Shown here: piece after piece, positions 40,396-55,578 of the stretch
Layout of the letters: the number at the start of each line of letters is the position of its first letter
How positions within the stretch are numbered: the stretch's first letter is position 1
Origin: an uncultured Acidobacteriota bacterium
Lineage (GTDB): Bacteria > Acidobacteriota > Terriglobia > Acidiferrales > UBA7541
Direction of reading: 5' to 3'
Assembly: GCA_963797345.1 (NCBI GenBank)
Contig: CAWCPO010000013.1
Span: forward strand, 18,830 to 82,829
DNA length: 64,000 nucleotides
The notes under the pieces: model-generated
Told to the model about the DNA's origin: nothing
Seen by the model: only the letters and a program-made list of their open reading frames with translations
Databases searched by the model: none
Program-made: the position numbers and the translations under genes

Positions 40396-40770
40396 ATGAC
40401 ACCTAACGAGATGAGTGTGAACGAGGGTGAAGCACTCTTGCGAACTATCTGCGGCGCTCGCCTCACGTCGGTGCAGTTCGTGCTCGATTACTTGATCCTG
40501 GGGTTTGATGAAGCCGGGGCGCTCACGACTCTTGTTTGGCCTGAAATCCAAGATGGCGAGGGCGTATTCAAATTTGGAATGAGCGGCTACAGAGACCGTT
40601 TGTGCGGACTAATTACGGAAGTTGTCAAGACTGTGGAGCTTACGGAGGACGAGACGATTTTCATCACATTCGAGAATAGGAGCTTTATGCGAATACCGCT
40701 TCGGGATCGTAAGGTTCGCGGCGAAAGGGCAATCTTCACCGCCCCCAAGCATCATCTCTACGCCTGGTAG
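40396..40770 (+). CDS. candidate cognate immunity protein (soluble, 124 aa)
   Basis: Starts 20 nt after the Rhs stop and immediately precedes the next cassette. No family recognised. Confidence 0.55.
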   Translation: MTPNEMSVNEGEALLRTICGARLTSVQFVLDYLILGFDEAGALTTLVWPEIQDGEGVFKFGMSGYRDRLCGLITEVVKTVELTEDETIFITFENRSFMRIPLRDRKVRGERAIFTAPKHHLYAW

Positions 40771-40788
40771 AAGTTCACCCCACTCGGA

Positions 40789-42450
40789 GTGTGTTGGCGA
40801 AATCCGCTCAGCCGCGGCGAGAGCTATCAGTACGACGGCAACGGCAATCTGACCCAATTCACCGACCGCCGCGGCGAGGCCACAACCTACACCTACGACA
40901 ATCTGAACCGCCGCGCTTTCGTGGGATTCAACACGCAAGCGGGGCCAAGCTACGAAAGCACGATCAGCTACACCTACGACGCAGGCAACCGCCTGACGCA
41001 GGCCGTGGATTCGATCACCGGGACGATCGCGCGCGTGTATGACGGCCTCGATCGGCTGACTTCGGAAACCACGCCGCAGGGCGGCGTCAGCTACGGCTAC
41101 GACATTGCCAGCCGCAGAACCAGCATGACCGTCGCGGGCCAGCCGGCCGTGAATTATTCATACGACAACGCGAGCCGGTTGACGCAGATCGCGCAGGGCG
41201 CATCGGCGGTATCCTTTGTGTACGATTCGGCCAGCCGGCGCACGTCGCTGACTCTGCCGAATGGCGTGGCCATGAGCTACAGCTACGACAACGCGTCGCA
41301 ACTCACCGGCATCAATTACACCCTCGGCCAGAACTCGCTCGGGAATTTAGCATATACCTATGATCTCGCCGGTCGGCGGACGAGTGAGGGCGGGAGCTAC
41401 GCAGCGGCCAATCTGCCGCAGCCTGTCTCCCTCACGGCGTACGACGCCGCAAACGAGTTGACGGAGTGGGGCGCGGCCACACCGGTGTACGACGCGAATG
41501 GGAACACGCTCAGCGACGGAACGAATAGCTACGCCTGGAACGGGCGCAATCAGCTCGCGTCAATGAATTCGAGTGCGGAAAGCTTCCAGTACGATCCCCT
41601 CGGCCGGCGCGTGGCGAAGACTGTCCTATTTGGCACGACGAATTACCTCTACGACGGCGCAAACCCCGTCCAGGAACTCGCAGGCACGACGCCTACGGCA
41701 AACTTGCTGACTGGCCTGGGAATCGACGAACGCTTTACCAGAACAGATTCGAGCGCGACGGCGAATTTCCTCACCGATGCGCTTGGCAGCACTTTGGCGC
41801 TGACGGACCCAAGCGGCAACACGCTCGCCTCCTACACCTACGAGCCTTTCGGCAACACGACGGTCACCGGCAGTTCTGCGAGCACCTACGAATTCACCGG
41901 CCGGGAAAACGACGGCACCGGCGTGTATTACTACAGAGCGCGCTATTACTCGCCAACCATGCAGAGATTCATCAGCGAAGACCCAATTCAGTTTGATGGT
42001 GGAGTGGATTTCTACGAATATGTCGATAGCAACCCCGTTGACTTCATCGACGCTTTCGGTTTATCAAGCCTAGTATTCAACCGGGCGGCCGGAACCCTGG
42101 ACGTGTACGACGGTAAAGGAAGCTACGTGGGAACGTACGATGCCGGCAATTTTACACTGAATCCAAACGGAGATCCGAATACGATCAACAGTTTTGGACC
42201 GGCCCCGAATGGAACTTATCCTGTGCAGCCACCGATTAATACAGGCAATGATCAATTAAGGTATGGACCCTATTTCTTTCCTATTGGGGCACCGGGATCG
42301 CTCATTCGTCGCCGTGGAATCGGACTGCACGGTGGACGTAAAGGACCACACTCCCTCACAAAAGGGTGTATCCGTGTGAGTAATCAGACCGATCAACAAC
42401 TGTACAATCTGAACCAAACTGATCCCATAAGGCAGATTACAATTCAATGA
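40789..42450 (+). CDS. orphan Rhs cassette 1: start-less Rhs core fragment plus an L,D-transpeptidase(YkuD)-like toxin domain (42064..42447)
   Basis: About 1.15 kb nearly identical to 38590-39760 of the main gene (offset 2218). The CT has GIGLHGGRKGPHSLTKGCIRVSN, the YkuD H...GC(I/V)R motif. Confidence 0.85.
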   Translation: MCWRNPLSRGESYQYDGNGNLTQFTDRRGEATTYTYDNLNRRAFVGFNTQAGPSYESTISYTYDAGNRLTQAVDSITGTIARVYDGLDRLTSETTPQGGVSYGYDIASRRTSMTVAGQPAVNYSYDNASRLTQIAQGASAVSFVYDSASRRTSLTLPNGVAMSYSYDNASQLTGINYTLGQNSLGNLAYTYDLAGRRTSEGGSYAAANLPQPVSLTAYDAANELTEWGAATPVYDANGNTLSDGTNSYAWNGRNQLASMNSSAESFQYDPLGRRVAKTVLFGTTNYLYDGANPVQELAGTTPTANLLTGLGIDERFTRTDSSATANFLTDALGSTLALTDPSGNTLASYTYEPFGNTTVTGSSASTYEFTGRENDGTGVYYYRARYYSPTMQRFISEDPIQFDGGVDFYEYVDSNPVDFIDAFGLSSLVFNRAAGTLDVYDGKGSYVGTYDAGNFTLNPNGDPNTINSFGPAPNGTYPVQPPINTGNDQLRYGPYFFPIGAPGSLIRRRGIGLHGGRKGPHSLTKGCIRVSNQTDQQLYNLNQTDPIRQITIQ

Positions 42451-42457
42451 GGAAATT

Positions 42458-43006
42458 ATGAAATTCCGTCTGACTGTCGGGCACCTCATTTGGGCACTTT
42501 TGCTTTGCGGATACTCACCCGTAACGCATGCGCGGCAAACTGGACCTGTGGATGGGGCCAATCGAGTCATCGCTCGCGCCGGCGAATTTGTTTCTCCGAA
42601 TAAGAAGTGCCGAGCCACGCTCAAGACTAGCAGCCTGGGTGGATTCTTAGTCCTTACTCTAGGCAGGAAGGCTGGTAAGAGAATCGACGATGTTACGGGA
42701 ATTGCATGGGTATCTGGCGACACCCTCGTTTATACTACGAGCCCGAGTTACGGAATTCCCGGAGTGTTCGCTTATAGCTGTGATTCTAACGGCATTAAGC
42801 GGCTCGCTGCGCCAAGAACGCTCAGCAAGGCGTATCCGAATGGGGCGGACTATTTTGAGCTACAAGGAATTTCAAGCGCGAACCCTGTCACAGTCTACTT
42901 CTATTACGCGCCCGACGTGGATGCGATGGACACTAAGAATTTCAAAACCCCAGCCTACCTCTTTCAGGTTTATCTAGATGGTACCGGCTTTAAGCAGGCG
43001 GAATAA
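42458..43006 (+). CDS. candidate immunity protein 1, secreted/periplasmic
   Basis: 182 aa with signal peptide MKFRLTVGHLIWALLLCGYSPVTHA. Lies 8 nt after the cassette 1 stop. Confidence 0.6.
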   Translation: MKFRLTVGHLIWALLLCGYSPVTHARQTGPVDGANRVIARAGEFVSPNKKCRATLKTSSLGGFLVLTLGRKAGKRIDDVTGIAWVSGDTLVYTTSPSYGIPGVFAYSCDSNGIKRLAAPRTLSKAYPNGADYFELQGISSANPVTVYFYYAPDVDAMDTKNFKTPAYLFQVYLDGTGFKQAE

Positions 43007-44228
43007 CACCTACGATCTGGCGGGGCGGCGGACGAGCCTGGGCGGGAACCTTGCGTCCACGGGGCTGCCGCAGCCCGTTTCGCTCACGGCGTACGACGCT
43101 GCCAACGAGCTCACCGAGTGGGGCGCGGCCACGCCAGTGTACGACGCGAATGGAAATACGCTCAGCGACGGAACGAACAGCTATGCATGGAACGGGCGGA
43201 ATCAGCTGGCTTCGATGAACATGGGTGCCGCGAGCTTCCAGTACGATCCCTTTGGACGGCGTGTCGCGAAGACCGCCGTCTTCACCACGACGAATTATCT
43301 CTACGATGGCGCAAATCCTGTCCAGGAACTCGCAGGCACCACGCCTACGGCAAATCTACTGACAGGCGGCGTGGACGAATACTTCCAGCGCACCGATTCA
43401 AGCGGCACGGCCAATTTCCTCACGGATGCGCTTGGCAGCACGTTGGCTCTGACGGGCCCGAGCGGTAACACCCTCGCCTCCTACACCTACGAGCCTTTCG
43501 GCAACACGACCGTCACCGGCAGCTCAACGAGCACCTACCAGTACACCGGCCGAGAGAATGATGGCACTGGCGTTTACTTCTACAGGGCACGCTACTACTC
43601 GCCGACACTGCAAAGGTTCATTAGCGAGGATCCCCTTGGCATCATTGGGGGCGGGATCGATTTCTACACCTACGTGGGCAATAGTCCGATAAACTTGACG
43701 GATGCTTTTGGGTTGCAAGCGAGCACGATCGGCCCGTCGACGGCAGGCCGCGCGCAGTGCGCTTCCTGCGTTCAACCCAATTTCCTGAATAAATTGGAGA
43801 TACCTATACTCCAAAATATTGCAGAACAAAACAATGAGACCGTTGGGATCGGCCTAAGCATCTCGGGAGGGGCCGGAAACGGAATCGGGGTTGCTGGAGG
43901 GTGGTCGGGATTCCTCGTGGTTAGTCCAGACGGCGAAGCCGGGTTTGCCTTCACACATGGATTTACGCCCTTGTTCGGACCAGTTAAAGGCAAAGGCTTT
44001 TTGGGTGGCGCCGCAATACTTCAGTCGGGTGCTACTAGCCCTGGACAACTGGCAGGGTGGGGTGTTGACGCCGGAGGGAGCGCTGCCGATGCGTTAGGAA
44101 TAGGAAGTGACGCATCTATCGGCAACGGAGGCATCCTAACGACTGTAGCCACCGCCGGTTTTGGGGCGGGTGGAAATGGACACGCGGCTGTGATTCAGCA
44201 CACTGTGGTCATCCCGATCTGCCAGTGA
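42978..44228 (+). CDS. orphan Rhs cassette 2 with a glycine-rich 170-aa CT (43716..44225)
   Basis: Rhs homology starts at about 43007, right after the immunity 1 stop, with no credible start codon. DAFGL demarcation, then a G-rich CT (GIGLSISGGAGNGIGVAGGW...). Confidence 0.8.
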   Translation: MVPALSRRNNTYDLAGRRTSLGGNLASTGLPQPVSLTAYDAANELTEWGAATPVYDANGNTLSDGTNSYAWNGRNQLASMNMGAASFQYDPFGRRVAKTAVFTTTNYLYDGANPVQELAGTTPTANLLTGGVDEYFQRTDSSGTANFLTDALGSTLALTGPSGNTLASYTYEPFGNTTVTGSSTSTYQYTGRENDGTGVYFYRARYYSPTLQRFISEDPLGIIGGGIDFYTYVGNSPINLTDAFGLQASTIGPSTAGRAQCASCVQPNFLNKLEIPILQNIAEQNNETVGIGLSISGGAGNGIGVAGGWSGFLVVSPDGEAGFAFTHGFTPLFGPVKGKGFLGGAAILQSGATSPGQLAGWGVDAGGSAADALGIGSDASIGNGGILTTVATAGFGAGGNGHAAVIQHTVVIPICQ

Positions 44229-44240
44229 CCCGAGGATTAT

Positions 44241-45008
44241 ATGACGTCAATTGCTAAGACCGACCGCGAGATGTTTTTTCTGATGAAGTATTTGCTACCG
44301 CTGCTTTTGTTTGTTGGGAGCAGCGCGCTGCTATTTAGCGGTCACCCGACTTTTGCCGTCGTGGCCCATAGGGCTCCGCTGCAAATTCCTTTTATTCTGT
44401 GGGGGGTCTTCCTCATGACACTGGCCGAGGTCAAGCTAGCTGACCACCATTTAGAGTACCGACGATTTCTCAAATGGCAGCAGGTTCCTTATAGTCAAAT
44501 CCGGCGACCTACGAACTCTGTGCATCCCGGTATAGGTTGCATAGCTCTCGATCGGTTCTTGTTGCCATGGGGCAGGATATACTTCGTGGCTCTGCGCCCA
44601 GCCTTCGATCATCAGGTCGACTTGGTGACATCCATCAATGAGCGGCGCTCGACCCAACAGTTTATTCCGGCACAATCCCAAGGCAACGTGCCTCACGATA
44701 CGCAGACAGACACCAAAAAAGCTGTCCGACTTTGCCTTGTTATGGGCCTCGTTGGTGTCCTTTACTCGGTTCTTCTTACTGCTTGGTTCCCGAATTTCTT
44801 CTCCGAGTCCAATTGGGATGGGTTCCCACCGTGGCTGGCATTTGCAGTGAAGGCTCTGCTCCGTGCAAGCAGTTGGCCATGGGCGCTCGCAACCGGTGCT
44901 CTGCTGCTTGTGTGGATTATGGCAGTACGTTTTAGGAATCGTTCGTGGGTTCTGGCAATGATAGTAGGGTCCCTGCTCGGCCACGTGGCAGTCGAAGCTT
45001 TGCGCTGA
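44241..45008 (+). CDS. candidate immunity protein 2, polytopic membrane protein
   Basis: 255 aa with about 6 hydrophobic helices. GAGGA RBS. Confidence 0.6.
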   Translation: MTSIAKTDREMFFLMKYLLPLLLFVGSSALLFSGHPTFAVVAHRAPLQIPFILWGVFLMTLAEVKLADHHLEYRRFLKWQQVPYSQIRRPTNSVHPGIGCIALDRFLLPWGRIYFVALRPAFDHQVDLVTSINERRSTQQFIPAQSQGNVPHDTQTDTKKAVRLCLVMGLVGVLYSVLLTAWFPNFFSESNWDGFPPWLAFAVKALLRASSWPWALATGALLLVWIMAVRFRNRSWVLAMIVGSLLGHVAVEALR

Positions 45009-45091
45009 TGGTTCGTTAACGCCTCGCATGTGAGGACGCCCGTAAGAGCCGTCTGACGTAGATCGCGCAAGGCGCTTCGGCGGTATCCTTT

Positions 45092-46477
45092 GTGTACGAT
45101 TCGGCGAACCGGCGCACATCGCTGACTCTGCCGAATGGCGTCGTTATGAGCTACAGCTACGACAATGCGTCGCAACTCTCGGCGATTAACTATCAGCTGG
45201 GGAGCAATTCGCTCGGCAATTTGACGTACACCTACGATCTGGCGGGGCGGCGGACGAGCCTGGGCGGGAACCTTGCGTCCACGGGGCTGCCGCAGCCCGT
45301 TTCGCTCACGGCGTACGACGCCGCAAACGAGTTGACGGAGTGGGGCGCGGCCACACCGGTGTACGACGCGAATGGGAACACGCTCAGCGACGGAACGAAT
45401 AGCTACGCCTGGAACGGGCGCAATCAGCTCGCGTCAATGAATTCGAGTGCGGAAAGCTTCCAGTACGATCCCCTCGGCCGGCGCGTGGCGAAGACTGTCC
45501 TATTTGGCACGACGAATTACCTCTACGACGGCGCAAACCCCGTCCAGGAACTCGCAGGCACGACGCCTACGGCAAACTTGCTGACTGGCCTGGGAATCGA
45601 CGAACGCTTTACCAGAACAGATTCGAGCGCGACGGCGAATTTCCTCACCGATGCGCTTGGCAGCACTTTGGCGCTGACGGACCCAAGCGGCAACACGCTC
45701 GCCTCCTACACCTACGAGCCTTTCGGCAATACGACAGCGACCGGCAGTTCTGCGAGCACCTACCAATTCACCGGCCGAGAGAACGATGGGACGGGGGTGT
45801 ACTACTACAGAGCACGTTACTATTCGCCGACATTGCAGAGGTTCATGAGCGAAGACCCCTTAGGCATGCTAGGCAGTGGACCCAATCTTTATGCATACGT
45901 TAGCAATAGCCCGATTAATGGGACGGACCCAGAGGGCACCGTATCGCCTTTCGGCCCCTGGAGTCACGCCCTTAAGCCGCTCTCGGGCAGAAAAGATAAA
46001 AACTCGAATCCAAACCCACTTCAGCCGCTCTCGGGAAAGACCCCTGAGCCACAGTCGCAGTCGCCGTGCACAGCCGCTCGAGCGGCCTTGGCATCCGTGG
46101 GCAGCCAACTTTCGGCGATCGGGAATGATTTGACTTGGACTGGGATAGCCGCTGTCGGGATTTCTGGCGCCGCTGCAATTCCTGCCCCCGAGGGTGCGCC
46201 CGGCGAACTTGCCGGCGCCGAGGCGGGTGTCGGCCTAATTGAGGTCGGCGGAGCTTCATCAACATTGGGAGCCAGTCTGGAGGGAGATGCTCAGAGCGGT
46301 CTTGCCGGAGGGATTAAGAAGGCAGCGATCAATGTTGCTGTAGATCAGATCAGTTCTCGCCTGACAGGTGGCTTATTTCCTGGAATAGACAGTGCTGCGA
46401 AATCCGCCGCCGCCGCTCTCTTGGGCGAAATTCCTGACTTACTTCAAAATGAGGAGGCCGCTTGTGGAGGTGGATAG
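45092..46477 (+). CDS. orphan Rhs cassette 3 with an Ala/Gly-rich 178-aa CT (45941..46474)
   Basis: Homology to the main gene begins at about 45058. The stretch 45290-45830 is near-identical to 39190-39730. DPEGT demarcation. Confidence 0.8.
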   Translation: MYDSANRRTSLTLPNGVVMSYSYDNASQLSAINYQLGSNSLGNLTYTYDLAGRRTSLGGNLASTGLPQPVSLTAYDAANELTEWGAATPVYDANGNTLSDGTNSYAWNGRNQLASMNSSAESFQYDPLGRRVAKTVLFGTTNYLYDGANPVQELAGTTPTANLLTGLGIDERFTRTDSSATANFLTDALGSTLALTDPSGNTLASYTYEPFGNTTATGSSASTYQFTGRENDGTGVYYYRARYYSPTLQRFMSEDPLGMLGSGPNLYAYVSNSPINGTDPEGTVSPFGPWSHALKPLSGRKDKNSNPNPLQPLSGKTPEPQSQSPCTAARAALASVGSQLSAIGNDLTWTGIAAVGISGAAAIPAPEGAPGELAGAEAGVGLIEVGGASSTLGASLEGDAQSGLAGGIKKAAINVAVDQISSRLTGGLFPGIDSAAKSAAAALLGEIPDLLQNEEAACGGG

Positions 46478-46673
46478 CATTATTGGACGTGACTGGATCG
46501 TTCTGCTCGCTGCCGCAGCTCTTCTATTCAACGCGATAAGGGGCTTAGCCACCGGGAGCGCGATACTGTTCTACCGAACCGTGACGCGATCTGAAGATGG
46601 GTTCCTGTATTGGTCCGCTGTATTGGGGTCTGCGATATTGGGCGTTGCAGCTGCGCTGGTAATTGTCCTGTGA
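46464..46673 (+). CDS. candidate immunity protein 3, 2-TM small membrane protein
   Basis: GAGGAGG RBS 6 nt before the GTG at 46464 (alternative ATG at 46449). Overlaps the cassette 3 stop. Confidence 0.5.
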   Translation: MEVDSIIGRDWIVLLAAAALLFNAIRGLATGSAILFYRTVTRSEDGFLYWSAVLGSAILGVAAALVIVL

Positions 46674-46812
46674 TCGTTGACGGCGGCCAGTGGCTGTGCA
46701 GCCACTGAAATCCCAATAGGGTTCGCATCAGAATTTCAACAAATGGGACCCTGAGCGGAAACTTAAGCAGGAGTTATCCGGCACTACAACCACCGCAACC
46801 CTGCTGACGGGC

Positions 46813-47538
46813 TTGAACGTGGACGAATATTTCCAGCGCACAGATTCTACTGGCACGGCCAATTTCCTGACGGATGCGCTCGGCAGTACACTGGCACTGA
46901 CGGACCCGAGCGGCAACACCCTCGCGCAATACACCTACGAGCCCTTTGGCAACACGACGGTCACCGGCAGTTCTGCAAGCACCTACGAATTCACCGGCCG
47001 GGAAAACGACGGCACCGGCGTCTATTTCTATCGGAACCGCTACTACAATCCGACCTTTCAGCGATTTATCAGGCAAGACCCAGTAGGGTTTATAGGAGGC
47101 ATGAACAAATATGCATATGCTTTCGGGAATCCTGTGAATAACCGTGATCCATTAGGGCTGTGGACCTTCGGCGCGGGCCTTACCGTCAACGTTCAGTTCG
47201 GTATCATTAATATCGAAGGATCCTACGGAGTTGTCATCGATGGATCTGGGCACGTAGGACTCTATGGGACAACAGGAGGGGGTCTCGGAGTCGGAGCCGA
47301 CGCGTCCGCTGGTGCAAGTCTCAGTTGGTCGAACGCCCGAAAGATTTGCGACTTGGCTGGGCCGTTTCAATATGGCAGCGGAACCGCGGGCGCGGGGCTA
47401 GACGGAACCATTGATGAATTCACTGGTTTCACTGGGGATGGTAAACCTGTAGTCGGCGGTGGCCTGACGGTTGGCGCTGGCGTTGGGGGAGGAGGTTCGG
47501 TCGGCCTGAATGGAACCACCATCATCCCAGTTAATTGA
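46813..47538 (+). CDS. orphan Rhs cassette 4 (short) with a glycine-rich 125-aa CT (47161..47535)
   Basis: Only the last 115 or so core codons are retained (homology from about 46768). DPLGL, then WTFGAGLTVNVQFGIINIEGSYG... Confidence 0.75.
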   Translation: MNVDEYFQRTDSTGTANFLTDALGSTLALTDPSGNTLAQYTYEPFGNTTVTGSSASTYEFTGRENDGTGVYFYRNRYYNPTFQRFIRQDPVGFIGGMNKYAYAFGNPVNNRDPLGLWTFGAGLTVNVQFGIINIEGSYGVVIDGSGHVGLYGTTGGGLGVGADASAGASLSWSNARKICDLAGPFQYGSGTAGAGLDGTIDEFTGFTGDGKPVVGGGLTVGAGVGGGGSVGLNGTTIIPVN

Positions 47539-47545
47539 GACAGAG

Positions 47546-47839
47546 ATGAAAAAATTAAAACGCATCATTGAGGTCCTGCTGATAACTGGAGTTTTTGGAA
47601 GCATCTTGTCGTTCACATACATTCATATTTCCTATAGTGCGTCGATGCCCAGAACACCTCAGATTGAATCTGGCAGGGTGTATCCAATTACCGTAAACCA
47701 CGGCACGGTGGTTTATGTGAACCGACGGGAATTGGATCACGCACATTTCATCACTCACGGAGTTTTCACTGGAGGTCTACTGTGTGTTTTGGCGTTGGTT
47801 TTTATTAAACAATATTGGAACGATGAGCCTAGCTCCTGA
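47546..47839 (+). CDS. candidate immunity protein 4, 2-TM membrane protein
   Basis: 97 aa from the ATG at 47546, 8 nt after the cassette stop. Confidence 0.55.
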   Translation: MKKLKRIIEVLLITGVFGSILSFTYIHISYSASMPRTPQIESGRVYPITVNHGTVVYVNRRELDHAHFITHGVFTGGLLCVLALVFIKQYWNDEPSS

Positions 47840-48029
47840 GTTTTGTCTTCCGCCCGCAACAAGAATTCGTGTCGTGGTTTGGGCGATGGCCACATCAACA
47901 AAGGCGCGAGCCAGCCGGTGCGGACATGCCTCAGCCCGTCTCCGTCACGGCCTATGACGCGGCGAACGAGTTGACCGCCGCGGCGAGGCCACAACCTACA
48001 CCTACGACAATCTGAACCGCCGCGCTTTC

Positions 48030-49646
48030 GTGGGATTCAACACGCAAGCGGGGCCAAGCTACGAAAGCACGATCAGCTACACCTACGACGTAGGCAACCG
48101 GCTGACGCAAGCCGTGGATTCGGTCACGGGAACCATCACGCGCGCGTATGACGGCCTCGATCGGCTGACTTCGGAAACCACGCCGCAGGGCGGCGTCAGC
48201 TACGGCTACGACATTGCCAGCCGCAGAACCAGCATGACCGTCGCGGGCCAGCCTGCCGTGAATTATTCATACGACAACGCGAGCCGGCTCACCGGCATCG
48301 CGCAGGGCACATCGGCGGTATCCTTTGTGTACGATTCGGCGAACCGGCGCACGTCGCTGACTCTGCCGAATGGCGTGGTCATGAGCTATAGCTACGACAA
48401 TGCGTCGCAACTCTCGGCGATTAACTATCAGTTGGGGAGCAATTCGCTCGGCAATTTGACGTACAGCTACGATCTGGCGGGGCGGCGGACGAGCCTGGGC
48501 GGGAGCTACGCGTCCACGGGGCTGCCGCAGCCCGTTTCGCTCACGGCGTACGACGCTGCCAACGAGCTCACCGAGTGGGGCGCGGCCACGCCGGTGTACG
48601 ACGCGAATGGGAACACGCTCAGCGATGGAACGAACAGCTACGCCTGGAACGGGCGCAATCAGCTTGCCTCGATGAACATGGGTGGCGCGAGCTTCCAATA
48701 CGATCCCTTCGGCCGCCGCGTGGCGAAGACCGCCCTCTTCACCACGACGAACTATCTCTACGACGGCTCGAACCCCGTCCAGGAACTCGCAGGCACCACG
48801 CCCACTGCAAACTTGCTCACCGGCAGCGTGGACGAGCGTTTTCAGCGCACGGACTCCACCGGCACAGCCAATTTCCTCACGGATGCGCTCGGCAGCACCC
48901 TGGCTCTTACCGATGGCAGCGGCAACACCCTCGCCTCCTACACCTACGAGCCTTTCGGCAACACCACGACGACCGGCAGTTCCGCAAGCACTTACCAATA
49001 CACCGGGCGGGAAAATGATGGAACAGGCCTCTACTACTATAGAGCGCGTTATTACTCGCCGACGCTTCAAAGGCTCATGAGCGAAGACCCGCTTAGGCTG
49101 AATGGCGGTGATGTAAACTTTTACGCCTATGTGGGCAATAGCCCGACCAATTTTAGGGATGCGAGAGGTTTGCTGCGTGACTGTTTCACTACTGCGTGCG
49201 GGGGCGTGCCACCGGTCGTTCCACTTCCTTTACCTCCCGCATCTCTCTCAGGCAGGAAACCAAAAGATGCCGCGAAGCAATATTGCGAAGACACCGGACA
49301 GCTCTCGTTCAATATTCCATGGACCAACGTTCCCGTTACAGTTGCCGCGAGCGGCACCCTTGGTCCAGCGAACTACGGTTCCACGAACGACTTGAATACG
49401 GTGGTTCCAGTCATTCCGTGGCCCCAATGGCTAGCGTCCGGCGCAAGTGTCGATATAACTGTTAATGCCCCAGCGCAGCCGTCCAATAACTTGACTTACG
49501 GCTTTGGGAAGAATCTCAGTCTAGGATCCTTCCTCACACCCAACGGTTCGCAAGGACTCACTATAAGCTTGGGCCCCAGTGTGGGACCGCCTGTGAACCT
49601 TTCGCACCTGACCAATAACGGTTGCGCTATGATGGCGAACAACTGA
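48030..49646 (+). CDS. orphan Rhs cassette 5 with an unclassified 157-aa CT (49173..49643)
   Basis: The Rhs-homologous frame extends upstream to about 47927 without a start. DARGL demarcation. Confidence 0.8.
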   Translation: MGFNTQAGPSYESTISYTYDVGNRLTQAVDSVTGTITRAYDGLDRLTSETTPQGGVSYGYDIASRRTSMTVAGQPAVNYSYDNASRLTGIAQGTSAVSFVYDSANRRTSLTLPNGVVMSYSYDNASQLSAINYQLGSNSLGNLTYSYDLAGRRTSLGGSYASTGLPQPVSLTAYDAANELTEWGAATPVYDANGNTLSDGTNSYAWNGRNQLASMNMGGASFQYDPFGRRVAKTALFTTTNYLYDGSNPVQELAGTTPTANLLTGSVDERFQRTDSTGTANFLTDALGSTLALTDGSGNTLASYTYEPFGNTTTTGSSASTYQYTGRENDGTGLYYYRARYYSPTLQRLMSEDPLRLNGGDVNFYAYVGNSPTNFRDARGLLRDCFTTACGGVPPVVPLPLPPASLSGRKPKDAAKQYCEDTGQLSFNIPWTNVPVTVAASGTLGPANYGSTNDLNTVVPVIPWPQWLASGASVDITVNAPAQPSNNLTYGFGKNLSLGSFLTPNGSQGLTISLGPSVGPPVNLSHLTNNGCAMMANN

Positions 49647-50140
49647 TGCAGGAACTGACACCAAAGAGTGCTCCACAGCACATCTTCAAGGCGGGGCAGT
49701 TTTGGACTTCGAACGTCTTTGGAGCGGCAGTGGGAGGAGCTGGGGCTGGCATTTTGATGTCCGTTGTGATGGTTATTGTGGTCTCGGAAAACCCGACACG
49801 GAACAATATTTTGTTCGCGACTGGATTGGTTCTGATCCTTGTACTGAGCGCACTATGCCTCCTTCCAGGCAATCTAATCGCTGGATACCCGTATGCCGTC
49901 GAGCTGGAGGAAGGGACGGGATTGCTGGTCCAGGCGCCTCTGAGGAAACTCAGTATTCCGATACAGGCCGTTCAGGACGTGCGTAAAACCTTTCTTCAAC
50001 CAGGATACGTCGTGCGGCTGAACCGTCGTTACGGTTTGCTTAAATCCTTTCTGATCCCATCGTACTTTGGAGAAGAAGGCGAGGCGTTGGCCAACGCGAT
50101 TCAAAAGGAGATTTGGCAGCTGCACGATAGTGCGAAATAG
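49646..50140 (+). CDS. candidate immunity protein 5, membrane protein
   Basis: The ATG overlaps the toxin stop (TGATG). Two to three TM helices, then a soluble tail. Confidence 0.55.
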   Translation: MQELTPKSAPQHIFKAGQFWTSNVFGAAVGGAGAGILMSVVMVIVVSENPTRNNILFATGLVLILVLSALCLLPGNLIAGYPYAVELEEGTGLLVQAPLRKLSIPIQAVQDVRKTFLQPGYVVRLNRRYGLLKSFLIPSYFGEEGEALANAIQKEIWQLHDSAK

Positions 50141-52223
50141 CAGGTTGAATAACACGACCTCCTTTGCAATCGACGGCAGCGGAAACACGACAGGCATTAC
50201 GGACCCGCTGGGCCATCAGACGACGTTCACTTTCGATTCCGAAGGGCGGCCCTTGACGGCCACGGACCCGCTCAGCCATTCCACCCACTTTGCTTACGAC
50301 CCAAGCAGCGACCTCGTATCCATCACCGACCCGCTCAGCCGGACCACGTCTCGTTCGTTCGACCCTGTTGGCCGGCTCATCAGCACGGCGAACCCGCTGG
50401 GTCAGAAGACACAGTATGCCTACGACGGCTTGAATCAGGTTACGCAGGTGACAGACGCGCTGGGGAATACGACGTCGTTCGCCTATGATCCGAACGGGAA
50501 CCTCACGGGCGTGACGGATGCCAATAGCCACGCGACGAGCTATACCTACGATTCGATGGACCGGCTCGCCACCCGCACCGATCCGCTCAGCCGCGGCGAA
50601 AGTTATCAGTACGATGGCAACGGCAATCTGACCCAATTCACGGACCGCCGCGGCGAGGCCACAACCTACACCTACGACAATCTGGACCGCCGCGCTTTCG
50701 CAGGATTCAACACGCAGGCGGGGCCGAGTTACGAAAGCACGATCAGCTACACCTACGACGTAGGCAACCGGCTGACGCAAGCCGTGGATTCGGTCACGGG
50801 AACCATCACGCGCGCGTACGACGGCCTCGACCGGGTGACTTCGGAGACCACGCCGCAGGGCGGCGTCAGCTACGGCTACGACATTGCCAGCCGCAGAACC
50901 AGCATGACGGTCGCGGGCCAGCCGGCCGTGAATTATTCATACGACAACGCGAGCCGTCTGACGCAGATCGCGCAGGGCACATCGGCGGTATCCTTTGTGT
51001 ACGATTCGGCCAGCCGGCGCACGTCGCTGACTCTGCCGAATGGCGTGGCCATGAGCTACAGCTACGACAATGCGTCGCAATTGAGCGGACTTACGTACAC
51101 GCTGGGGACGAACACGTTGGGAAATCTGACGTATACCTACGATCTGGCGGGGCGGCGGACGAGCATGGGCGGGAGCTACGCGGCGGCCAATCTGCCGCAG
51201 CCCGTTTCGCTCACGGCCTATGACGCTGCCAACGAATTGACCGAGTGGGGTGCGGCCACGCCGGTGTACGACGCGAATGGAAATACGCTCAGCGACGGAA
51301 CGAACAGCTATGCATGGAACGGGCGGAATCAGCTGGCTTCGATGAACATGGGTGCCGCGAGCTTCCAGTACGATCCCTTTGGACGGCGTGTCGCGAAGAC
51401 CGCCGTCTTCACCACGACGAATTATCTCTACGATGGCGCAAATCCTGTCCAGGAACTCGCAGGCACCACGCCTACGGCAAATCTACTGACAGGCGGCGTG
51501 GACGAATACTTCCAGCGCACCGATTCAAGCGGCACGGCCAATTTCCTCACGGATGCGCTTGGCAGCACGTTGGCTCTGACGGGCCCGAGCGGTAACACCC
51601 TCGCCTCCTACACATACGAGCCTTTCGGCAATACGACAGCGACCGGCAGTTCTGCGAGCACCTACCAGTACACCGGTCGAGAGAACGATGGAACGGGAGT
51701 GTATTTCTATCGAGCCAGATACTACTCGCCGACGCTGCAACGGTTCATCGGCGAGGACCCGATCGGGTTCGCAGGTGGTTTCAACCTCTACCGCTATGTC
51801 TCAGACAATCCCGTAAACCGAGTTGATCCGCTCGGAATGTGGCAATTGACCCTCAGTGGAGGCGCGGGCTGGGGAGCTAGAATCACGATCGGGAACAATG
51901 GCGGGAGCGGCTTTTTCAATGGCCAATGGAACTTTGGTTTCTATGGAGGCGGTGGCGAGGGACTCGCCCTAGATATCGACATCTATAACAGAGGCTGTCA
52001 CCAGCAGGGACTTAACTGGGGTGTTGAGGGAAACGGCGAAATCGGTTTTGGGCCTGAGGTCGAGGCAGAGGCTCACGTGGGCACAGACCCTTGGTGGAAC
52101 ATCAATGGCAATATCCCAGGGACACCGGTTGGCGGGTCAATCGGCACTGAGGGCGTCACCGTACCAACAATTGGATTTGGTGAGTCAGTGGTCGTCGGCG
52201 TTGGCGGAACGGCCTATTTCTGA
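50067..52223 (+). CDS. orphan Rhs cassette 6 (longest, about 1.6 kb of core) with a glycine-rich 127-aa CT (51840..52220)
   Basis: Homology to main gene nt 38149 onward starts at 50147, 7 nt after the immunity 5 stop. The listed N-terminal 26 aa overlap immunity 5 and are not Rhs-like. Confidence 0.8.
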   Translation: MEKKARRWPTRFKRRFGSCTIVRNSRLNNTTSFAIDGSGNTTGITDPLGHQTTFTFDSEGRPLTATDPLSHSTHFAYDPSSDLVSITDPLSRTTSRSFDPVGRLISTANPLGQKTQYAYDGLNQVTQVTDALGNTTSFAYDPNGNLTGVTDANSHATSYTYDSMDRLATRTDPLSRGESYQYDGNGNLTQFTDRRGEATTYTYDNLDRRAFAGFNTQAGPSYESTISYTYDVGNRLTQAVDSVTGTITRAYDGLDRVTSETTPQGGVSYGYDIASRRTSMTVAGQPAVNYSYDNASRLTQIAQGTSAVSFVYDSASRRTSLTLPNGVAMSYSYDNASQLSGLTYTLGTNTLGNLTYTYDLAGRRTSMGGSYAAANLPQPVSLTAYDAANELTEWGAATPVYDANGNTLSDGTNSYAWNGRNQLASMNMGAASFQYDPFGRRVAKTAVFTTTNYLYDGANPVQELAGTTPTANLLTGGVDEYFQRTDSSGTANFLTDALGSTLALTGPSGNTLASYTYEPFGNTTATGSSASTYQYTGRENDGTGVYFYRARYYSPTLQRFIGEDPIGFAGGFNLYRYVSDNPVNRVDPLGMWQLTLSGGAGWGARITIGNNGGSGFFNGQWNFGFYGGGGEGLALDIDIYNRGCHQQGLNWGVEGNGEIGFGPEVEAEAHVGTDPWWNINGNIPGTPVGGSIGTEGVTVPTIGFGESVVVGVGGTAYF

Positions 52224-52224
52224 G

Positions 52225-52626
52225 ATGTCATCCACCGTTCAGAGCAAGTGGCTGGCTATTAGGGTGCTCTTGTTGGGCGTCAGCGCATTGGGAATCGCAA
52301 TGATCCCAGGCGAACGATCCAACTTAGATTGGCCCGCGTGCGTCTTGATCAGCACCCTGTCATCACTCGCTCTGTTCGGCTGGTTGACGGCGATTCGCTT
52401 TAGGCAGGACGCCAACTGGTCAGCCCCCTTCTCATGGCACGAGCCCTTTTGGCCAATGATGAGATATCCTTTGCGATACTGGTTTCTGGCTTCGTGTGCG
52501 CTCGCAATAGGTGGCGCTTTGGGGATAGTGGCGGATGCCATTTTGCACAGAGGGCATGAAGCCGTTAGTGGAACATTCTTCTTCACGGGGGCTCTTGATG
52601 CTTGCAGCTCTAAGAATCTGGATTAG
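52225..52626 (+). CDS. candidate immunity protein 6, 4-TM membrane protein
   Basis: ATG 2 nt after the toxin stop. 133 aa, strongly hydrophobic. Confidence 0.55.
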   Translation: MSSTVQSKWLAIRVLLLGVSALGIAMIPGERSNLDWPACVLISTLSSLALFGWLTAIRFRQDANWSAPFSWHEPFWPMMRYPLRYWFLASCALAIGGALGIVADAILHRGHEAVSGTFFFTGALDACSSKNLD

Positions 52627-52832
52627 GAAATTTAGGCCGGCGCGAGTGTGAACCATATGGAGATTTCCGTGTGGCACAGCTCGGTCGCTGTCATTCGCCA
52701 AAATTCCATCTGCCCCGAAAGTGCCGCGATTCTTTCGCGCTAAGGATCGAAAAGCGAGCCTGCACTTAGCCGAGATTTGCACTGAGCATCCTGAAAATCC
52801 CCTCGGATGCAGGAAATCATCTAACCCAGGCG

Positions 52833-54347
52833 GTGGATTCGGTTACGGGGACGATCGCGCGCGTGTACGACGGCCTCGATCGGCTGACTTCGGAAACCAC
52901 GCCGCAGGGCGGCGTCAGCTACGGCTACGATACGGACAGCCGCAGAACCAGCATGACGGTGGCGGGCCAGCCTGCCGTGAATTATTCATACGACAACGCG
53001 AGCCGGTTGACGCAGATCGCGCAGGGCGCATCGGCGGTATCCTTTGTGTACGATTCGGCCAGCTGGCGCACGTCGCTGACTCTGCCGAATGGCGTGGCCA
53101 TGAGCTACAGCTACGACAACGCGTCGCAACTCACCGGCATCAATTACACCCTCGGCCAGAACTCGCTCGGGAATTTAGCATATACCTATGATCTCGCCGG
53201 TCGGCGGACGAGTGAGGGCGGGAGCTACGCGTCCACGGGGCTGCCGCAGCCTGTCTCCCTCACGGCGTACGACGCCGCAAACGAGTTGACGGAGTGGGGC
53301 GCGGCCACACCGGTGTACGACGCGAATGGGAACACGCTCAGCGACGGAACGAATAGCTACGCCTGGAACGGGCGCAATCAGCTCGCGTCAATGAATTCGA
53401 GTGCGGAAAGCTTCCAGTACGATCCCCTCGGCCGGCGCGTGGCGAAGACTGTCCTATTTGGCACGACGAATTACCTCTACGACGGCGCAAACCCCGTCCA
53501 GGAACTCGCAGGCACGACGCCTACGGCAAACTTGCTGACTGGCCTGGGAATCGACGAACGCTTTACCAGAACAGATTCGAGCGCGACGGCGAATTTCCTC
53601 ACCGATGCGCTTGGCAGCACTTTGGCGCTGACGGACCCAAGCGGCAACACGCTCGCCTCCTACACCTACGAGCCTTTCGGCAATACGACAGCGACCGGCA
53701 GTTCTGCGAGCACCTACCAGTACACCGGCCGAGAGAACGATGGGACGGGGGTGTACTACTACAGAGCACGTTATTACTCGCCGACGCTGCAAAGATTCGT
53801 CAGCGAGGATCCGATTGGAATTGTGGGTGGAATTAACAAATATGCTTATACTCTCAGCAACCCGACAACATATCGTGATCCCTCAGGCCTAAGTTCGACA
53901 ACTGGAAGGGGACCCTGCACATGCTTGCAGGTTTTTGCAAATGCTTTTACAAATCCAGTAGAGGGGCCGCTGGGCAACGAGGTCGAAGATGCAACCCAGG
54001 CGGTGCAGGGCGGGCTTCAAGCTGCCGGTGCCGGGCTCGGCTACGCTGCTGGACAAGTCTACAACCAAGCATTGCAGTACGGCTTCGGTTTGGCGTCTTC
54101 TGCTTCCGCCGCCGGAACCATATCCTACGGGCTACGTTCTTCTATTCTGCGTGGCCTTCTGAATACGACCGAGGACTTGTCTAACCTTGCGGAGAGCGTG
54201 ACTAGCGAGGCAGTTGCGGGCGAGGCCGGAATTGCAACGGTTGATGTCCTCTTGGGCAACGCCCTAGGAGCGGAGGTCGAGGCTGTGAGAAACGGAACTT
54301 GCATTCCAGAGCAGGAAGCCCTCAGGATCATAATATTCGGGCAATGA
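52833..54347 (+). CDS. orphan Rhs cassette 7 with an Ala/Gly-rich 151-aa CT (53892..54344)
   Basis: Homology from about 52820. The stretch 53230-53760 is near-identical to the main gene and cassette 3. DPSGL demarcation. Confidence 0.8.
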   Translation: MDSVTGTIARVYDGLDRLTSETTPQGGVSYGYDTDSRRTSMTVAGQPAVNYSYDNASRLTQIAQGASAVSFVYDSASWRTSLTLPNGVAMSYSYDNASQLTGINYTLGQNSLGNLAYTYDLAGRRTSEGGSYASTGLPQPVSLTAYDAANELTEWGAATPVYDANGNTLSDGTNSYAWNGRNQLASMNSSAESFQYDPLGRRVAKTVLFGTTNYLYDGANPVQELAGTTPTANLLTGLGIDERFTRTDSSATANFLTDALGSTLALTDPSGNTLASYTYEPFGNTTATGSSASTYQYTGRENDGTGVYYYRARYYSPTLQRFVSEDPIGIVGGINKYAYTLSNPTTYRDPSGLSSTTGRGPCTCLQVFANAFTNPVEGPLGNEVEDATQAVQGGLQAAGAGLGYAAGQVYNQALQYGFGLASSASAAGTISYGLRSSILRGLLNTTEDLSNLAESVTSEAVAGEAGIATVDVLLGNALGAEVEAVRNGTCIPEQEALRIIIFGQ

Positions 54348-54712
54348 CTATGGCCAAGAATCCGGGAGAGACGAAGAGGAGTCTTGCCGACTCCGTTGTA
54401 TTGTGGGGTACGGCGTGTCTCGTAGTCGGTCTCGGGGTAGGTTTTTTCTGGGTTAGCGACGAATTGCATTTCGAGGGGAAGTGGCGCCTCTACCTGCTCC
54501 TAAACGTTGGATTCTGTGGTGTTGTAATTTGGAGATCCCGGACGTGGTTTAACCATTGGGGGTCCGGATTACTGCTGACCGCATGGCTAGCAGTGCATCT
54601 TGTGGTCTATGGATTTCTCACCCGACTCGATTTCAATTTGTTCTTCTGTATTTTCCTATTCCCGGCCCGAGGCCATGGTCCTGCTGGCTGTAGGTCAGGT
54701 AGTGAGGGCTAG
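54344..54712 (+). CDS. candidate immunity protein 7, 4-TM membrane protein
   Basis: ATGA start/stop overlap with cassette 7. 122 aa. Confidence 0.55.
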   Translation: MTMAKNPGETKRSLADSVVLWGTACLVVGLGVGFFWVSDELHFEGKWRLYLLLNVGFCGVVIWRSRTWFNHWGSGLLLTAWLAVHLVVYGFLTRLDFNLFFCIFLFPARGHGPAGCRSGSEG

Positions 54713-54760
54713 ACACCGAGAGAACGAGTTGCGCCAAGTAAAGCGCGGCTGACACGATCA

Positions 54761-55456
54761 ATGGCCCATGACGCCGCGAACGAGCTCACCGAGTGGGGCG
54801 TGGCCACGCCAGTGTACGACGCGAATGGCAATACGATCGGTTCGGGCGGAATCAACTCGGCGTACGATTTCGAGAACCGCCTGATCCAGCAGGGCGCGGG
54901 AGTCAGCATCGTGTACGACGGCGATGGGAATCGCGTGAAGAAGACGGCCGGAGGCGTCACGACGACGTACCTGGTGGACGAGATCAATCCCACCGGCTAC
55001 CCGCAGGTAATCTACGAAGGCTTCTCGGGAGGCGCTGGCGCGCGGGAACTTTATCACATGTACGTCTACGGGCTGGAGCGCATCAGCCAGAGCCGCACCT
55101 TCCTTGCCGGCAGCCAGCAGACGCAAATCAGCTACTACGTCTACGACGGCCACGGCAGCACACGAGCATTAACCGATCCCACCGGCAACGTCACCGACGC
55201 CTACGACTACGACGCCTTCGGGAACCTGATCCACTCGACCGGCACCACGCCCAACGAATTCCTCTTCGCCGGCGAGCAATTCGACTCCACCCTCAACCTC
55301 TACTACAACCGCGCCCGATACTCTCGCCCGGAAACCTTGGAACGTCTGGCCAAGGAACCCCAGAAAGTTAACTCTTCTGTGGTTCACCACGCCTTCCGTT
55401 GCTCCCCTTGCTATAAGACTTGCAGCCGGCTGCTGGCCCACATGAAGGTCGAATGA
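54761..55456 (+). pseudogene. orphan Rhs cassette 8: chimeric and 3'-truncated, with no toxin and no immunity
   Basis: The first 20 or so codons match the local family and the rest is a different Rhs lineage. Similarity stops right after LYYNRARY, before the PxxxxDPxGL motif. Confidence 0.7.
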
Positions 55457-55541
55457 ATTGCCAGAACAGCTTCCAAGGCTCACAGGGCTGATTCCAGAAG
55501 CCATAGTTGAAGAGAGTTAAATTTCTCCTGACATTTCCCCA

Positions 55542-55578
55542 TTTTTTTGCCTCTTTATAAGTGAGGGGAGTTCTCGCC
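55542..55578. repeat. T-run plus hairpin motif, copy 1 (copy 2 at 55831-55867)
   Basis: TTTTTT(G/C)CC..TCT.TATA..TGAGGGGAGTT.CT shared at about 85% over about 38 nt. Copy 2 forms a 7-bp stem (TCCCCTC/GAGGGGA). Confidence 0.45.

Follow-up and report, generated by a model that had tools for sequence, protein, structure and literature searches.

Orphan rhs-CT/rhsI modules formed by C-terminal displacement have been described in enterobacteria (Jackson et al. 2009, as cited in PMC5727410), and Poole et al. 2011 (PMC3150448) discussed orphan modules together with a duplication model. Arrays of such modules can be deep: E. coli EC869 has eleven cdiA-CT orphans (PMC3150448), and Snodgrassella alvi has 18 Rhs genes distributed over three loci, its arrays also carrying CT-less terminal fragments (Steele et al. 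2017, PMC5727410); loci with 5-7 cassettes turned up in Lachnospiraceae in our own scan. In Salmonella, a stretch of 522 bp with 95% identity served for recombination following a duplication (Koskiniemi et al. 2014, PMC3967940).

The window examined here (i.e. the whole stretch of DNA analysed, 64,000 nt) spans forward-strand positions 18,830-82,829 of contig CAWCPO010000013.1 (GCA_963797345.1) from an uncultured, soil-type member of the Acidobacteriota (Acidiferrales, UBA7541). Most probably it contains a polymorphic-toxin locus of the Rhs type that has an orphan rhs-CT/rhsI store on its downstream side and belongs to a tRNA-targeting integrative element of ~30 kb. An earlier note on this DNA had taken the principle to be that known from enterobacterial orphan modules, and the architecture is indeed that of a classic orphan rhs-CT/rhsI locus. 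Its view that the depth of the array is unusual was overstated, given the E. coli, S. alvi and Lachnospiraceae arrays.

Organisation of the Rhs locus

The main rhs gene (Table 1) encodes, in order, a hydrophobic signal-like N-terminus (hydrophobic segment at residue 9), Kelch repeats, Big_5, DUF6531, RHS repeats (PF05593, E 1.8e-90, 11 stretches), a boundary and the tip CT0, as assigned with Pfam. The boundary consists of DPLG and DPGG spaced by 20 aa, with PINWTDPGGM at 39819-39848, and is a putative aspartyl autoproteolysis boundary. The C-terminal ~95 aa of CT0 form a conserved toxin domain for which Pfam has no model; in a JGI contig, a CT0-like orphan adjacent to an integrase is likewise trailed by a 124-aa ORF. 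Neither the main protein nor the scanned flanking ORFs gave a match to PAAR or VgrG, the mark of a T6SS-delivered Rhs effector.

Downstream of this gene and its putative immunity gene, blastn detected eight plus-strand segments between 40804 and 54835 that are homologous to the main core in its 3' portion (E 0 to 9e-15). All eight entry points into the core differ, confirming that the cassettes begin abruptly inside Rhs sequence, and the proposal that two of them abut the preceding immunity stop was also correct: homology of c2 starts from the I1 stop codon (43006) and c6 begins 5 nt past the I5 stop (50146). Eight cassettes had been proposed, each with its own boundary motif and a unique CT. 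This holds for c1-c7, which share a P....D(P/A).G(L/M/T) boundary, have unique CTs of 125-178 aa and are each trailed, as claimed, by a coupled small ORF (gaps of 7, 12 or 1 nt, or overlaps), but not for c8. The latter has no PxxxxDPxG boundary motif, CT or immunity gene, has only 66 nt in common with the main gene and runs on as a distantly related RHS core that breaks off after YYNRARYS; the array thus comprises seven complete orphan modules, one CT-less remnant and a 46-nt relic. The relic is visible in the spacer before c5 and matches the main gene at 85% over 46 nt (E 9e-6, blastn-short). Together with the all-different junctions, it points to what may be a history of nested illegitimate joins.

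Table 1. Features of the Rhs locus and its integrative element (entry, position in the main rhs gene at which core homology begins; percentages, nucleotide identity to the main core unless stated)
Feature	Position	Strand	Description	Evidence
Left direct repeat	28803-29175		373 nt; integrase 3' fragment and tRNA-Ala-like 3' half (29131-29175, minus strand)	
Upstream surface-protein gene	33424-34959	+	IPT/TIG-CarboxypepD_reg-RHS-repeat protein; 3' remnant, ~510 codons	Pfam TIG, CarboxypepD_reg, RHS_repeat
Main rhs	34977-40376	+	Full-length, 1,799 codons	Pfam, motif, SD (GGAG, 7 nt 5' of ATG)
CT0	39849-40373	+	Tip of main gene	
I0	40396-40770	+	Putative CT0 immunity gene, 124 aa, no TM segment	19 nt after rhs stop
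c1	40804-42450	+	Entry 38586; CT1 42064-42447	97.3% over 1181 nt
I1	42458-43006	+	182 aa, hydrophobic N-terminus	GAGG SD; 7 nt after c1
c2	43006-44228	+	Entry 39138; CT2 43716-44225	82.6% over 644 nt; PINLTDAFGL
I2	44241-45008	+	255 aa, 5 TM-like segments	GAGG SD; 12 nt after c2
c3	45046-46477	+	Entry 38954; CT3 45941-46474	90.7% over 913 nt; PINGTDPEGT
I3	46464-46673	+	69 aa, 2 TM, GTG start	GAGGAGG SD; overlaps c3 stop
c4	46720-47538	+	Short core, entry ~39525; CT4 47161-47535	85% over 192 nt
I4	47510-47839	+	109 aa, 2 TM	Start overlaps c4 3' end
Relic	47927-47972	+	5' start of an earlier orphan, fused to c5 start	Matches main 39196-39241
c5	47973-49646	+	Entry 38646; CT5 49173-49643	85.2% over 1192 nt; PTNFRDARGL
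I5	49646-50140	+	164 aa, 2 TM	ATG overlaps c5 stop by 1 nt
c6	50146-52223	+	Longest core, entry 38149; CT6 51840-52220	89.1% over 1620 nt
I6	52225-52626	+	133 aa, 3 TM	ATG 1 nt after c6 stop
c7	52806-54347	+	Entry 38775; CT7 53892-54344	94.9% over 986 nt
I7	54344-54712	+	122 aa, 2 TM	ATGA start/stop overlap with c7
c8 remnant	54713-55456	+	Entry 39225; junction and 66 nt resembling the other cores, followed by divergent RHS core	
Excisionase-like gene	57803-58219	+	HTH_17	Pfam
Tyrosine integrase	58092-59273, catalytic C-terminus in ORF 59141-59449	+	Two ORFs, to 59449	PF00589, PF14659
Right direct repeat	59148-59520		373 nt	99.7% identical to left copy

Near-identity of the orphan cores to the main gene, as earlier claimed, applies to c1 (97.3% over 1181 nt) and c7 (94.9%) but not to the others (83-91%). 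The longest exact tracts shared with the main gene are 821 nt in c1, 410 nt in c7, 392 nt in c3, 166 nt in c6 and 108 nt in c5. These fall to 44, 21 and 17 nt in c2, c4 and c8, which are probably poor recombination substrates; a 350-nt exact tract is common to c2 and c6. From one end of the array to the other, identity to the main gene shows no monotonic fall, so that serial displacement by itself would not account for the full history. The spacing of the two boundary motifs is 19-20 in the main gene and c2-c7, and the first motif of c1 is DPIQ.

Among the tips, CT1 matched YkuD in Pfam (24.3 bits, cutoff 23.4) and Tlde1_dom below its cutoff (22 bits, cutoff 30.1). It contains a HGG...TKGCIRV stretch of the H...GC(I/V)R catalytic type and is a putative cell-wall toxin with a YkuD/Tlde1-like L,D-transpeptidase fold; no sequence match to CT1 was obtained in the PDB. 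Glycine-rich tips occur in CT2, CT4 and CT6, and CT2-CT7 as a group are Gly/Ala-rich. Six of the seven orphan immunity proteins (i.e. I2-I7) have 2-5 predicted TM segments, and this combination of Gly/Ala-rich tips and membrane immunity partners suggests membrane-targeting toxins.

The earlier assignment of the array to an integrative element was supported by the excisionase and integrase genes, a drop in GC and tRNA-derived 373-nt direct repeats, which bracket a ~30.3-kb element holding the whole Rhs locus. The last ~45 nt of the repeats correspond to the half of a tRNA-Ala(UGC)-like gene that runs from the anticodon loop to CCA, with a partial Rfam match to a tRNA-like T-arm, acceptor and CCA at 59476-59520 in the right copy. 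No intact target tRNA was found at the element boundary, nor any tRNA in the 64-kb window; the intact target presumably lies beyond position 64000, behind a second element. A syntenic flank in a related locus (L001) ends at an intact tRNA-Lys.

Shared modules in related loci

Locus L001, from a related Acidobacteriota MAG, carries CT7 and I7 on a full-length Rhs frame of 1788 codons (match of 97.3% over 2032 nt). CT7 of the window and the L001 main tip are identical at 453 of 453 nt, and I7 exhibits 98.5% nucleotide identity, whilst the Rhs backbone and island flanks of the two loci are only 85-91% identical. The identity of CT7 implies that reloading, or the reverse displacement, was very recent. 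Direct comparative support was thereby obtained for the proposal that orphan cores act as substrates for swapping the tip of the main gene.

Downstream of this gene in L001, the c8 junction of the window is joined to a c6-like core with CT6 and I6 (1653 nt at 96.4%), followed by the c7 junction and then the right flank shared with the window. The c8 junction (54713-54835) is retained but runs on there as c6-like core. CT6 is an orphan in L001 as well (380/381 nt identical, 99.7%; I6, 98.7%). The shared right flank comprises 55452-55902 and 56213-58159, from the array end into the start of the integrase gene, and the array sits between flanks collinear with L001. Module order is circularly permuted between the two loci, and we infer that one deletion could not turn a window-like array into the L001 arrangement, for which a duplication or an independent insertion would be required. 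The 3' cores are mosaic, with blocks of 99-100% identity common to the L001 main gene and to the main gene, c1 and c7 of the window.

The L001 homologue of the upstream surface-protein gene is an open frame of 1540 codons, and homology in the window begins only at 33455. The window copy lacks the 5' part present in L001; the locus may thus have lost its native promoter or a required partner, which could leave it inactive as a whole. That the main gene is expressed, as the earlier note had it, is an assumption.

Other Rhs loci of Terriglobia contain pairs resembling CT4/I4 (L006, L007 and L050), and a CT4-like tip occurs in L030. CT1-like tips were found in many short RHS ORFs, and one CT1-like orphan (L078) is trailed by a 182-aa ORF. 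Given the identity or near-identity of CT7 and CT6 between otherwise more divergent loci and the permuted module order, a tentative reading, to which we give somewhat under even chances, is that co-occurring Acidobacteriota species exchange modules as discrete units; the array might then be a snapshot of an actively shared, community-level pool of toxin and immunity genes, which duplication and recombination would reshuffle and mobile islands with different integrases would carry.

Origin and use of the orphan modules

In the history that we propose, modules would pile up by C-terminal displacement: tips, arriving from outside or already resident, would recombine with the main gene via the conserved core, and the displaced tips would land downstream. 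Unequal crossing-over between cores may later have reshuffled them. The orphan toxin pieces, which have no SD and lack the N-terminal export and shell parts, would normally stay untranslated. An orphan tip and its immunity gene would be loaded onto the export-competent gene when the orphan core undergoes RecA-type recombination with that of the main gene. Loading would work best for c1, c7, c3, c6 and c5 (exact tracts of 108-821 nt) and would either delete the intervening modules or follow a tandem duplication that keeps them. The seven orphan immunity genes, which have their own ATG or GTG starts and in several cases an SD, may protect against neighbours deploying the corresponding toxins.

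The visible decay in c8 and the 46-nt relic would also be expected if the orphans were fossil debris of displacement and a bank of immunity, with selection on the immunity genes only and toxin pieces never reloaded in this lineage. This possibility was discussed by Poole et al. (PMC3150448) and fits the independent starts and SD motifs of the immunity genes and the scarcity of exact homology for efficient recombination in c2, c4 and c8. We consider it rather unlikely, as all seven orphan toxin frames are intact over 272-722 codons, CT7 sits on the L001 main gene at 100% nucleotide identity, and the exact tracts of 392-821 nt in c1, c7 and c3 offer more than the homology that was enough in Salmonella (522 bp at 95% identity, PMC3967940). 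A quite improbable reading is that the orphans are independently expressed small toxins, acting inside the producer or delivered without the Rhs shell. An orphan Rhs in Salmonella is reported to behave like a toxin-antitoxin module, and S. alvi orphans are reported to be transcribed (PMC7043789, PMC5727410). In this locus, in-frame GTG or ATG codons occur in every orphan, and the immunity genes are translationally coupled to the orphan frame before them (I5 and I7 by overlap, I6 across a 1-nt gap), which could imply upstream translation; the coupling is equally explained as inherited from a formerly full-length gene. The orphans had been described as start-less, without a credible start codon or RBS. 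In two cases (c2 and c8) the frame does open with an ATG (at 42978, inside the I1 3' end, and at 54761, respectively), but both lack an SD, and no SD-like motif was found 3-12 nt 5' of any in-frame ATG, GTG or TTG in any orphan. Nearby genes (i.e. the main gene, I1, I2 and I3) served as positive controls and do have one (GGAG, GAGG or GAGGAGG). Sigma-70-like promoters were not in excess (5 found, 7.4 expected), and neither a signal peptide nor a secretion domain is present in the orphans.

Exact repeats of up to 821 nt raise the question of whether the array was stitched together during assembly or binning from several Rhs loci or co-occurring strains. The earlier note had warned of an assembly risk from the repeats, and this caveat still holds. 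Frame breaks in kdpB and in the integrase (near 59160) hint at indel-type sequence errors, and strain mixture is conceivable as CT6 and CT7 are identical or nearly so to those of another MAG. Such an artefact is very improbable: every module is unique in its CT, immunity gene and junction, reading frames run unbroken across all core/CT joins, the flanks around the array are collinear with L001, and two junctions (I6-c7 and I7-c8 only) recur in that independent assembly.

Comparison with described systems

The locus favours the displacement-and-reloading history and provides a clean natural example of the orphan-cassette model of Rhs diversification outside Proteobacteria and Firmicutes. One tip sits at a presumably silent position in one genome and on the export-competent gene of a relative, and the junction scars fit the published model of duplication followed by recombination. 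Interbacterial antagonism in soil Acidobacteriota is barely studied, and the locus supplies eight candidate toxin/immunity pairs, including six membrane-type immunity proteins, one Tlde1-like cell-wall toxin and one small all-beta domain without a solved homologue, as well as a testable recombination system.

CT1 resembles the Tlde1/Tldi1 T6SS effectors (PF10908, PF03734) in its domain, its catalytic-type stretch and the hydrophobic N-terminus of I1, but is an Rhs tip whereas Tlde1 is a stand-alone T6SS cargo effector. Orphan cdiA-CT/cdiI arrays of CDI systems likewise consist of tandem start-less tips with expressible immunity genes, and their proposed reloading by recombination at a conserved pre-toxin motif, possibly after duplication, follows the same logic; the delivery protein there is CdiA/TPS with a VENN motif rather than an RHS shell. 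In S. alvi wkB2, too, a single complete Rhs gene is followed by several cassettes in each array, cores share blocks of >90-95% identity and terminal fragments have, like c8, truncated N-termini and no toxin domain. The wkB2 main genes carry PAAR and encode T6SS effectors; transcription and apparent activity extend to many of the orphans there.

Enterobacterial orphan loci have the same layout of a full-length rhs gene followed, in the same orientation, by 5'-truncated cores, each of which carries a boundary of the PxxxxDPxGL type and a CT of its own and lies next to an immunity gene. Initiation signals are absent in both, homology tracts are of a size shown to recombine, and an orphan tip can be found on the full-length gene of another genome. 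The present locus differs in its Acidobacteriota host, in a main Rhs with a signal-like N-terminus, Kelch and Big_5 and no association with PAAR or VgrG, in its seven complete orphans as compared to one or two in Salmonella or Dickeya, and in having membrane proteins as most of its immunity proteins. It reveals no new principle and is a known kind of swappable toxin store.

Composition of the Rhs locus

Genes between 33.4 and 55.5 kb form a single long block in the same orientation (+ strand). The full-length rhs gene (i.e. the main gene) encodes a protein with a signal-like hydrophobic N-terminus, Kelch repeats, Big_5 and DUF6531 domains and 11 RHS-repeat stretches, and ends in a C-terminal boundary of the form RYYSPTLQRFMSE-DPLG-20 aa-DPGG-M followed by a C-terminal toxin tip (CT0) of 175 aa. 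The last ~95 aa of CT0 (40059-40373) correspond to a conserved domain (GGSGGNGL...VR.MDP...YPNGY...VNPYTG...WWHI) found in 53 protein clusters, in some of which it lies behind PT-HINT domains. This domain has no Pfam model, and its predicted structure, a small all-beta fold (pLDDT 91), gave no match at E <= 0.001 in a Foldseek search of the PDB. Of the gene upstream (33424-34959), just the final ~510 codons are present. Its counterpart in L001, the Rhs locus of a related Acidobacteriota MAG (2199-6818), is intact at 1540 codons; the L001 product has an IPT/TIG-DUF1349-CarboxypepD_reg-RHS-repeat architecture, and homology in the window begins abruptly at 33455.

The array was mapped using blastn with 40377-57000 as query against the main gene. 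Eight collinear matches were observed downstream of the main gene (c1-c8; Table), for which chance would not be an issue given the E-values. Each of c1-c7 is one unbroken frame of 272-722 codons, running from its junction (i.e. the start of the orphan core piece) through a boundary motif, and carries a unique tip (CT1-CT7) of 125-178 aa. Beyond its short match, c8 continues as a distant RHS core (long alignments with other Rhs cores show 29-47% aa identity) that breaks off after YYNRARYS; boundary motif, tip and partner ORF are all absent. A 46-nt scar at 47927-47972 (PQPVSVTAYDAANEL), matching main-gene positions 39196-39241, is joined directly to the start of c5. As c8 lacks a tip and this scar is present, the array as assembled comprises seven complete modules, one remnant (c8) and one relic (the 46 nt). 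The earlier note, which had described eight start-less cassettes with cores near-identical to the main gene, was thus essentially right about the array except for c8; near-identity holds for c1 and c7 only. An ATG does open c2 (42978) and c8 (54761), but in none of the orphans was a Shine-Dalgarno (SD)-like motif found at an in-frame start. SD motifs are present for the main gene, I1 (GAGG), I2 (GAGG) and I3 (GAGGAGG before GTG 46464). The orphan toxin frames are putatively silent. The main gene is only putatively expressed, as its upstream partner is 5'-truncated in the window. A scan of 39500-56500 for sigma-70 promoters and terminators was uninformative, yielding no more than expected from shuffled sequence. 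No plasmid match was obtained by megablast with 38000-46000, and Tandem Repeats Finder and Rfam at gathering thresholds returned nothing.

Features of the Rhs locus and its bracketing repeats (identity, aligned length and exact tracts are relative to the main gene; I0-I7, putative immunity genes)
Feature	Position	Match start in main gene	Identity / length	Longest exact tract (nt)	Boundary motif	Partner or remark
Main rhs	ATG 34977, stop 40374-40376 (+)					~1,800 aa; GGAG 7 nt 5' of ATG; I0, 124-aa ORF (+), starts 19 nt past stop
c1	40804	38586	97.3% / 1181 nt	821	PVDFIDAFGL	I1, 7-nt gap past c1 stop
c2	43008	39138	82.6% / 644 nt	44	PINLTDAFGL	I2, 12-nt gap past c2 stop
c3	45046	38954	90.7% / 913 nt	392	PINGTDPEGT	I3, starts within 3' end of toxin ORF (overlap)
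c4	46840	39525	85.4% / 192 nt	21	PVNNRDPLGL	I4, starts within 3' end of toxin ORF (overlap)
c5	47973	38646	85.2% / 1192 nt	108	PTNFRDARGL	I5, ATG and c5 stop overlap by 1 nt
c6	50146	38149	89.1% / 1620 nt	166	PVNRVDPLGM	I6, ATG 1 nt past c6 stop
c7	52821	38775	94.9% / 986 nt	410	PTTYRDPSGL	I7, ATGA start/stop overlap with c7
c8	54770	39225	86.4% / 66 nt	17
Direct repeat (373 nt)	28803-29175 and 59148-59520					One mismatch; brackets ~30.3 kb

The tips and their partners were compared with known families. CT1 scored just above the Pfam threshold for YkuD, gave a weak match to Tlde1_dom, and contains HGG...GCIRV; comparison with the PDB by sequence yielded only noise. No Pfam family match was obtained for CT2-CT7 or for most of the immunity proteins. 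I2-I7 each contain 2-5 transmembrane (TM)-like hydrophobic segments; TM-like segments are absent from I0 and I1, the N-terminus of I1 being hydrophobic. The Gly/Ala-rich composition of CT2-CT7, together with the membrane-protein character of their partners, suggests that these tips may be membrane-targeting toxins. The GC content of the toxin-tip and immunity genes (0.43-0.59) is lower than that of the left-hand chromosome (~0.61).

Probable recombination of toxin tips

Exact tracts are shared not only with the main gene but also between orphans (c2/c6, 350 nt; c3/c7, 461 nt), showing that the cores are mosaics. In Salmonella, exchange between main and orphan genes ran over 522 bp at 95% identity (PMC3967940). 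The eight junctions all differ in sequence, with spacers of 0-179 nt, and no motif or inverted repeat common to them was found; integron- or shufflon-like site-specific recombination was therefore rejected. The junction pattern is instead what would be expected if the core side arose by homologous exchange and the downstream side by illegitimate joining.

A scan with the 3' core, using one genome per species, yielded 77 loci. The closest, L001 (MAG MFD02248.bin.1.112), is collinear with the window: its upstream gene and main Rhs are 84.5% identical to 33455-39760, and its right flank is 89-91% identical to 55452-58159. In the L001 full-length Rhs gene, the 3' end matches the window from the c7 core through CT7 and I7 to the c8 junction (52806-54835; 97.3%). 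The next L001 ORF begins with the c8 junction of the window and continues with a c6-like core, CT6, I6 and ~60 nt from the start of c7 (96.4% to 51215-52867), beyond which the DNA is unrelated. CT7 (453/453 nt) and CT6 (380/381 nt) are identical or nearly so, and I6 and I7 are 98.5-98.7% identical, so the modules are far more alike than their backbones. Sliding identity of the L001 main core to the window main gene, c1 and c7 is 99-100% over the last ~600 nt and 80-94% further upstream. One and the same tip, CT7, thus appears to occupy a silent position in the window and an export-competent gene in L001, a natural recombinant that supports the earlier proposal of the orphans as substrates for tip-swapping.

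The tips in L001 (CT7 then CT6) are circularly permuted relative to those in the window (CT6 then CT7), and a window-like array could give rise to the L001 order through three events: unequal crossing-over of the c8 core with the c6 core, in a stretch of 10 residues that they share, then exchange between the main gene and c7, and later a truncation. Such a route would match the published model of duplication followed by recombination (PMC3150448, PMC3967940). The comparative case is further supported by additional loci. Pairs resembling CT4/I4 are present in three further Rhs loci of Terriglobia/Acidobacteriota, and on a JGI contig a CT0-like orphan, with a partner of 124 aa, is situated upstream of an integrase. 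Tips of the CT1 type are carried by many short RHS ORFs and are also present, with a 182-aa partner, in locus L078. For CT0 and CT1, identity to the best public homologues reaches only 72-74%.

Several features of these relatives were also observed. The final ~12 residues of I7 (54660-54712) are read in a frame other than that of the L001 copy (12435-12558), whose ORF is ~45 codons longer and overlaps the start of the next orphan. Downstream of the truncated c7 start, L001 carries a gene (14598-15440) for a membrane protease of the Rce1/CPBP family, which is often linked to bacteriocin immunity. In L078, the CT1-like YkuD tip and its partner lie in a cluster of short RHS fragments (7031-11570) with an IS66 element just upstream and no full-length Rhs gene within 10 kb.

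Integrative element and flanks

That the array is carried on an integrative element was supported by the bracketing direct repeats, an excisionase-like gene, a tyrosine integrase and a drop in GC at ~29 kb, directly past kdpC. The bracketed segment contains nuclease genes, the truncated upstream gene, the whole Rhs locus, the HTH_17 excisionase-like gene and the integrase. Each repeat consists of an integrase 3' fragment and the 3' half of a tRNA-Ala(UGC)-like gene (minus strand), the last ~45 nt being the anticodon-loop-to-CCA half. A tRNA-Cys reading was rejected on loop/stem layout, which fits tRNA-Ala(UGC); Rfam gave a single weak match here, to the tRNA-like end of tmRNA. No intact tRNA occurs within the 64-kb window, and one may lie beyond its end. 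Both the repeats and the ArdC-like and other mobile-element genes to the right of the element suggest a tandem arrangement of islands. The flank shared with L001 ends there at a different integrase (40% aa identity) adjoining an intact tRNA-Lys.

The integrase gene (58092-59449) is interrupted by a frame break near 59160, a short way into the right repeat, so that ORF 59141-59449, in another frame, encodes the catalytic C-terminus with its HxxR...Y region; either a pseudogene or an indel error could account for this. Similarly, a frameshift near 26585-26600, just upstream of the DKTGT motif, splits kdpB (25714-27754) into two overlapping ORFs. Pseudogene and sequence error are both candidate explanations, and the split bears on single-base trust in the assembly. 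An ORF at 30194-31060 encodes both an RRM_1 RNA-recognition motif and an Mrr_cat restriction-endonuclease domain, which are not commonly found together in bacteria.

Array depth and known systems

Depth was scored by counting the 3'-core ends in loci of up to ~22 kb. One, two and three ends were observed in 51, 14 and five loci, respectively, and five and six ends in one locus each, as compared to nine ends in 16 kb for the window. The window is the deepest of the sampled Acidobacteriota; the other loci extended no further than 10 kb downstream, and over that distance the window itself would show six core ends. Both the five- and six-end loci are from Lachnospiraceae, the latter reaching seven on one contig with an overlapping locus. 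These arrays (L059/L077 on contig CAJTCV010000006.1, ~126.8-150.7 kb, and L058) hold 5-7 cassettes with a PVVYYDPSGY-type boundary, demonstrating that Firmicutes, too, have deep orphan arrays.

Polymorphic toxins of Acidobacteria have been catalogued previously (PMC3482391), and the locus is a textbook case of an orphan rhs-CT/rhsI store, from a phylum that has received little study. The suggestion that an eight-deep array on an integrative element is unusual was overstated, given the Lachnospiraceae arrays and published examples of comparable depth, namely the eleven orphan cdiA-CT modules of E. coli EC869 (PMC3150448) and the 18 Rhs genes in three loci of S. alvi, which include CT-less terminal fragments (PMC5727410).
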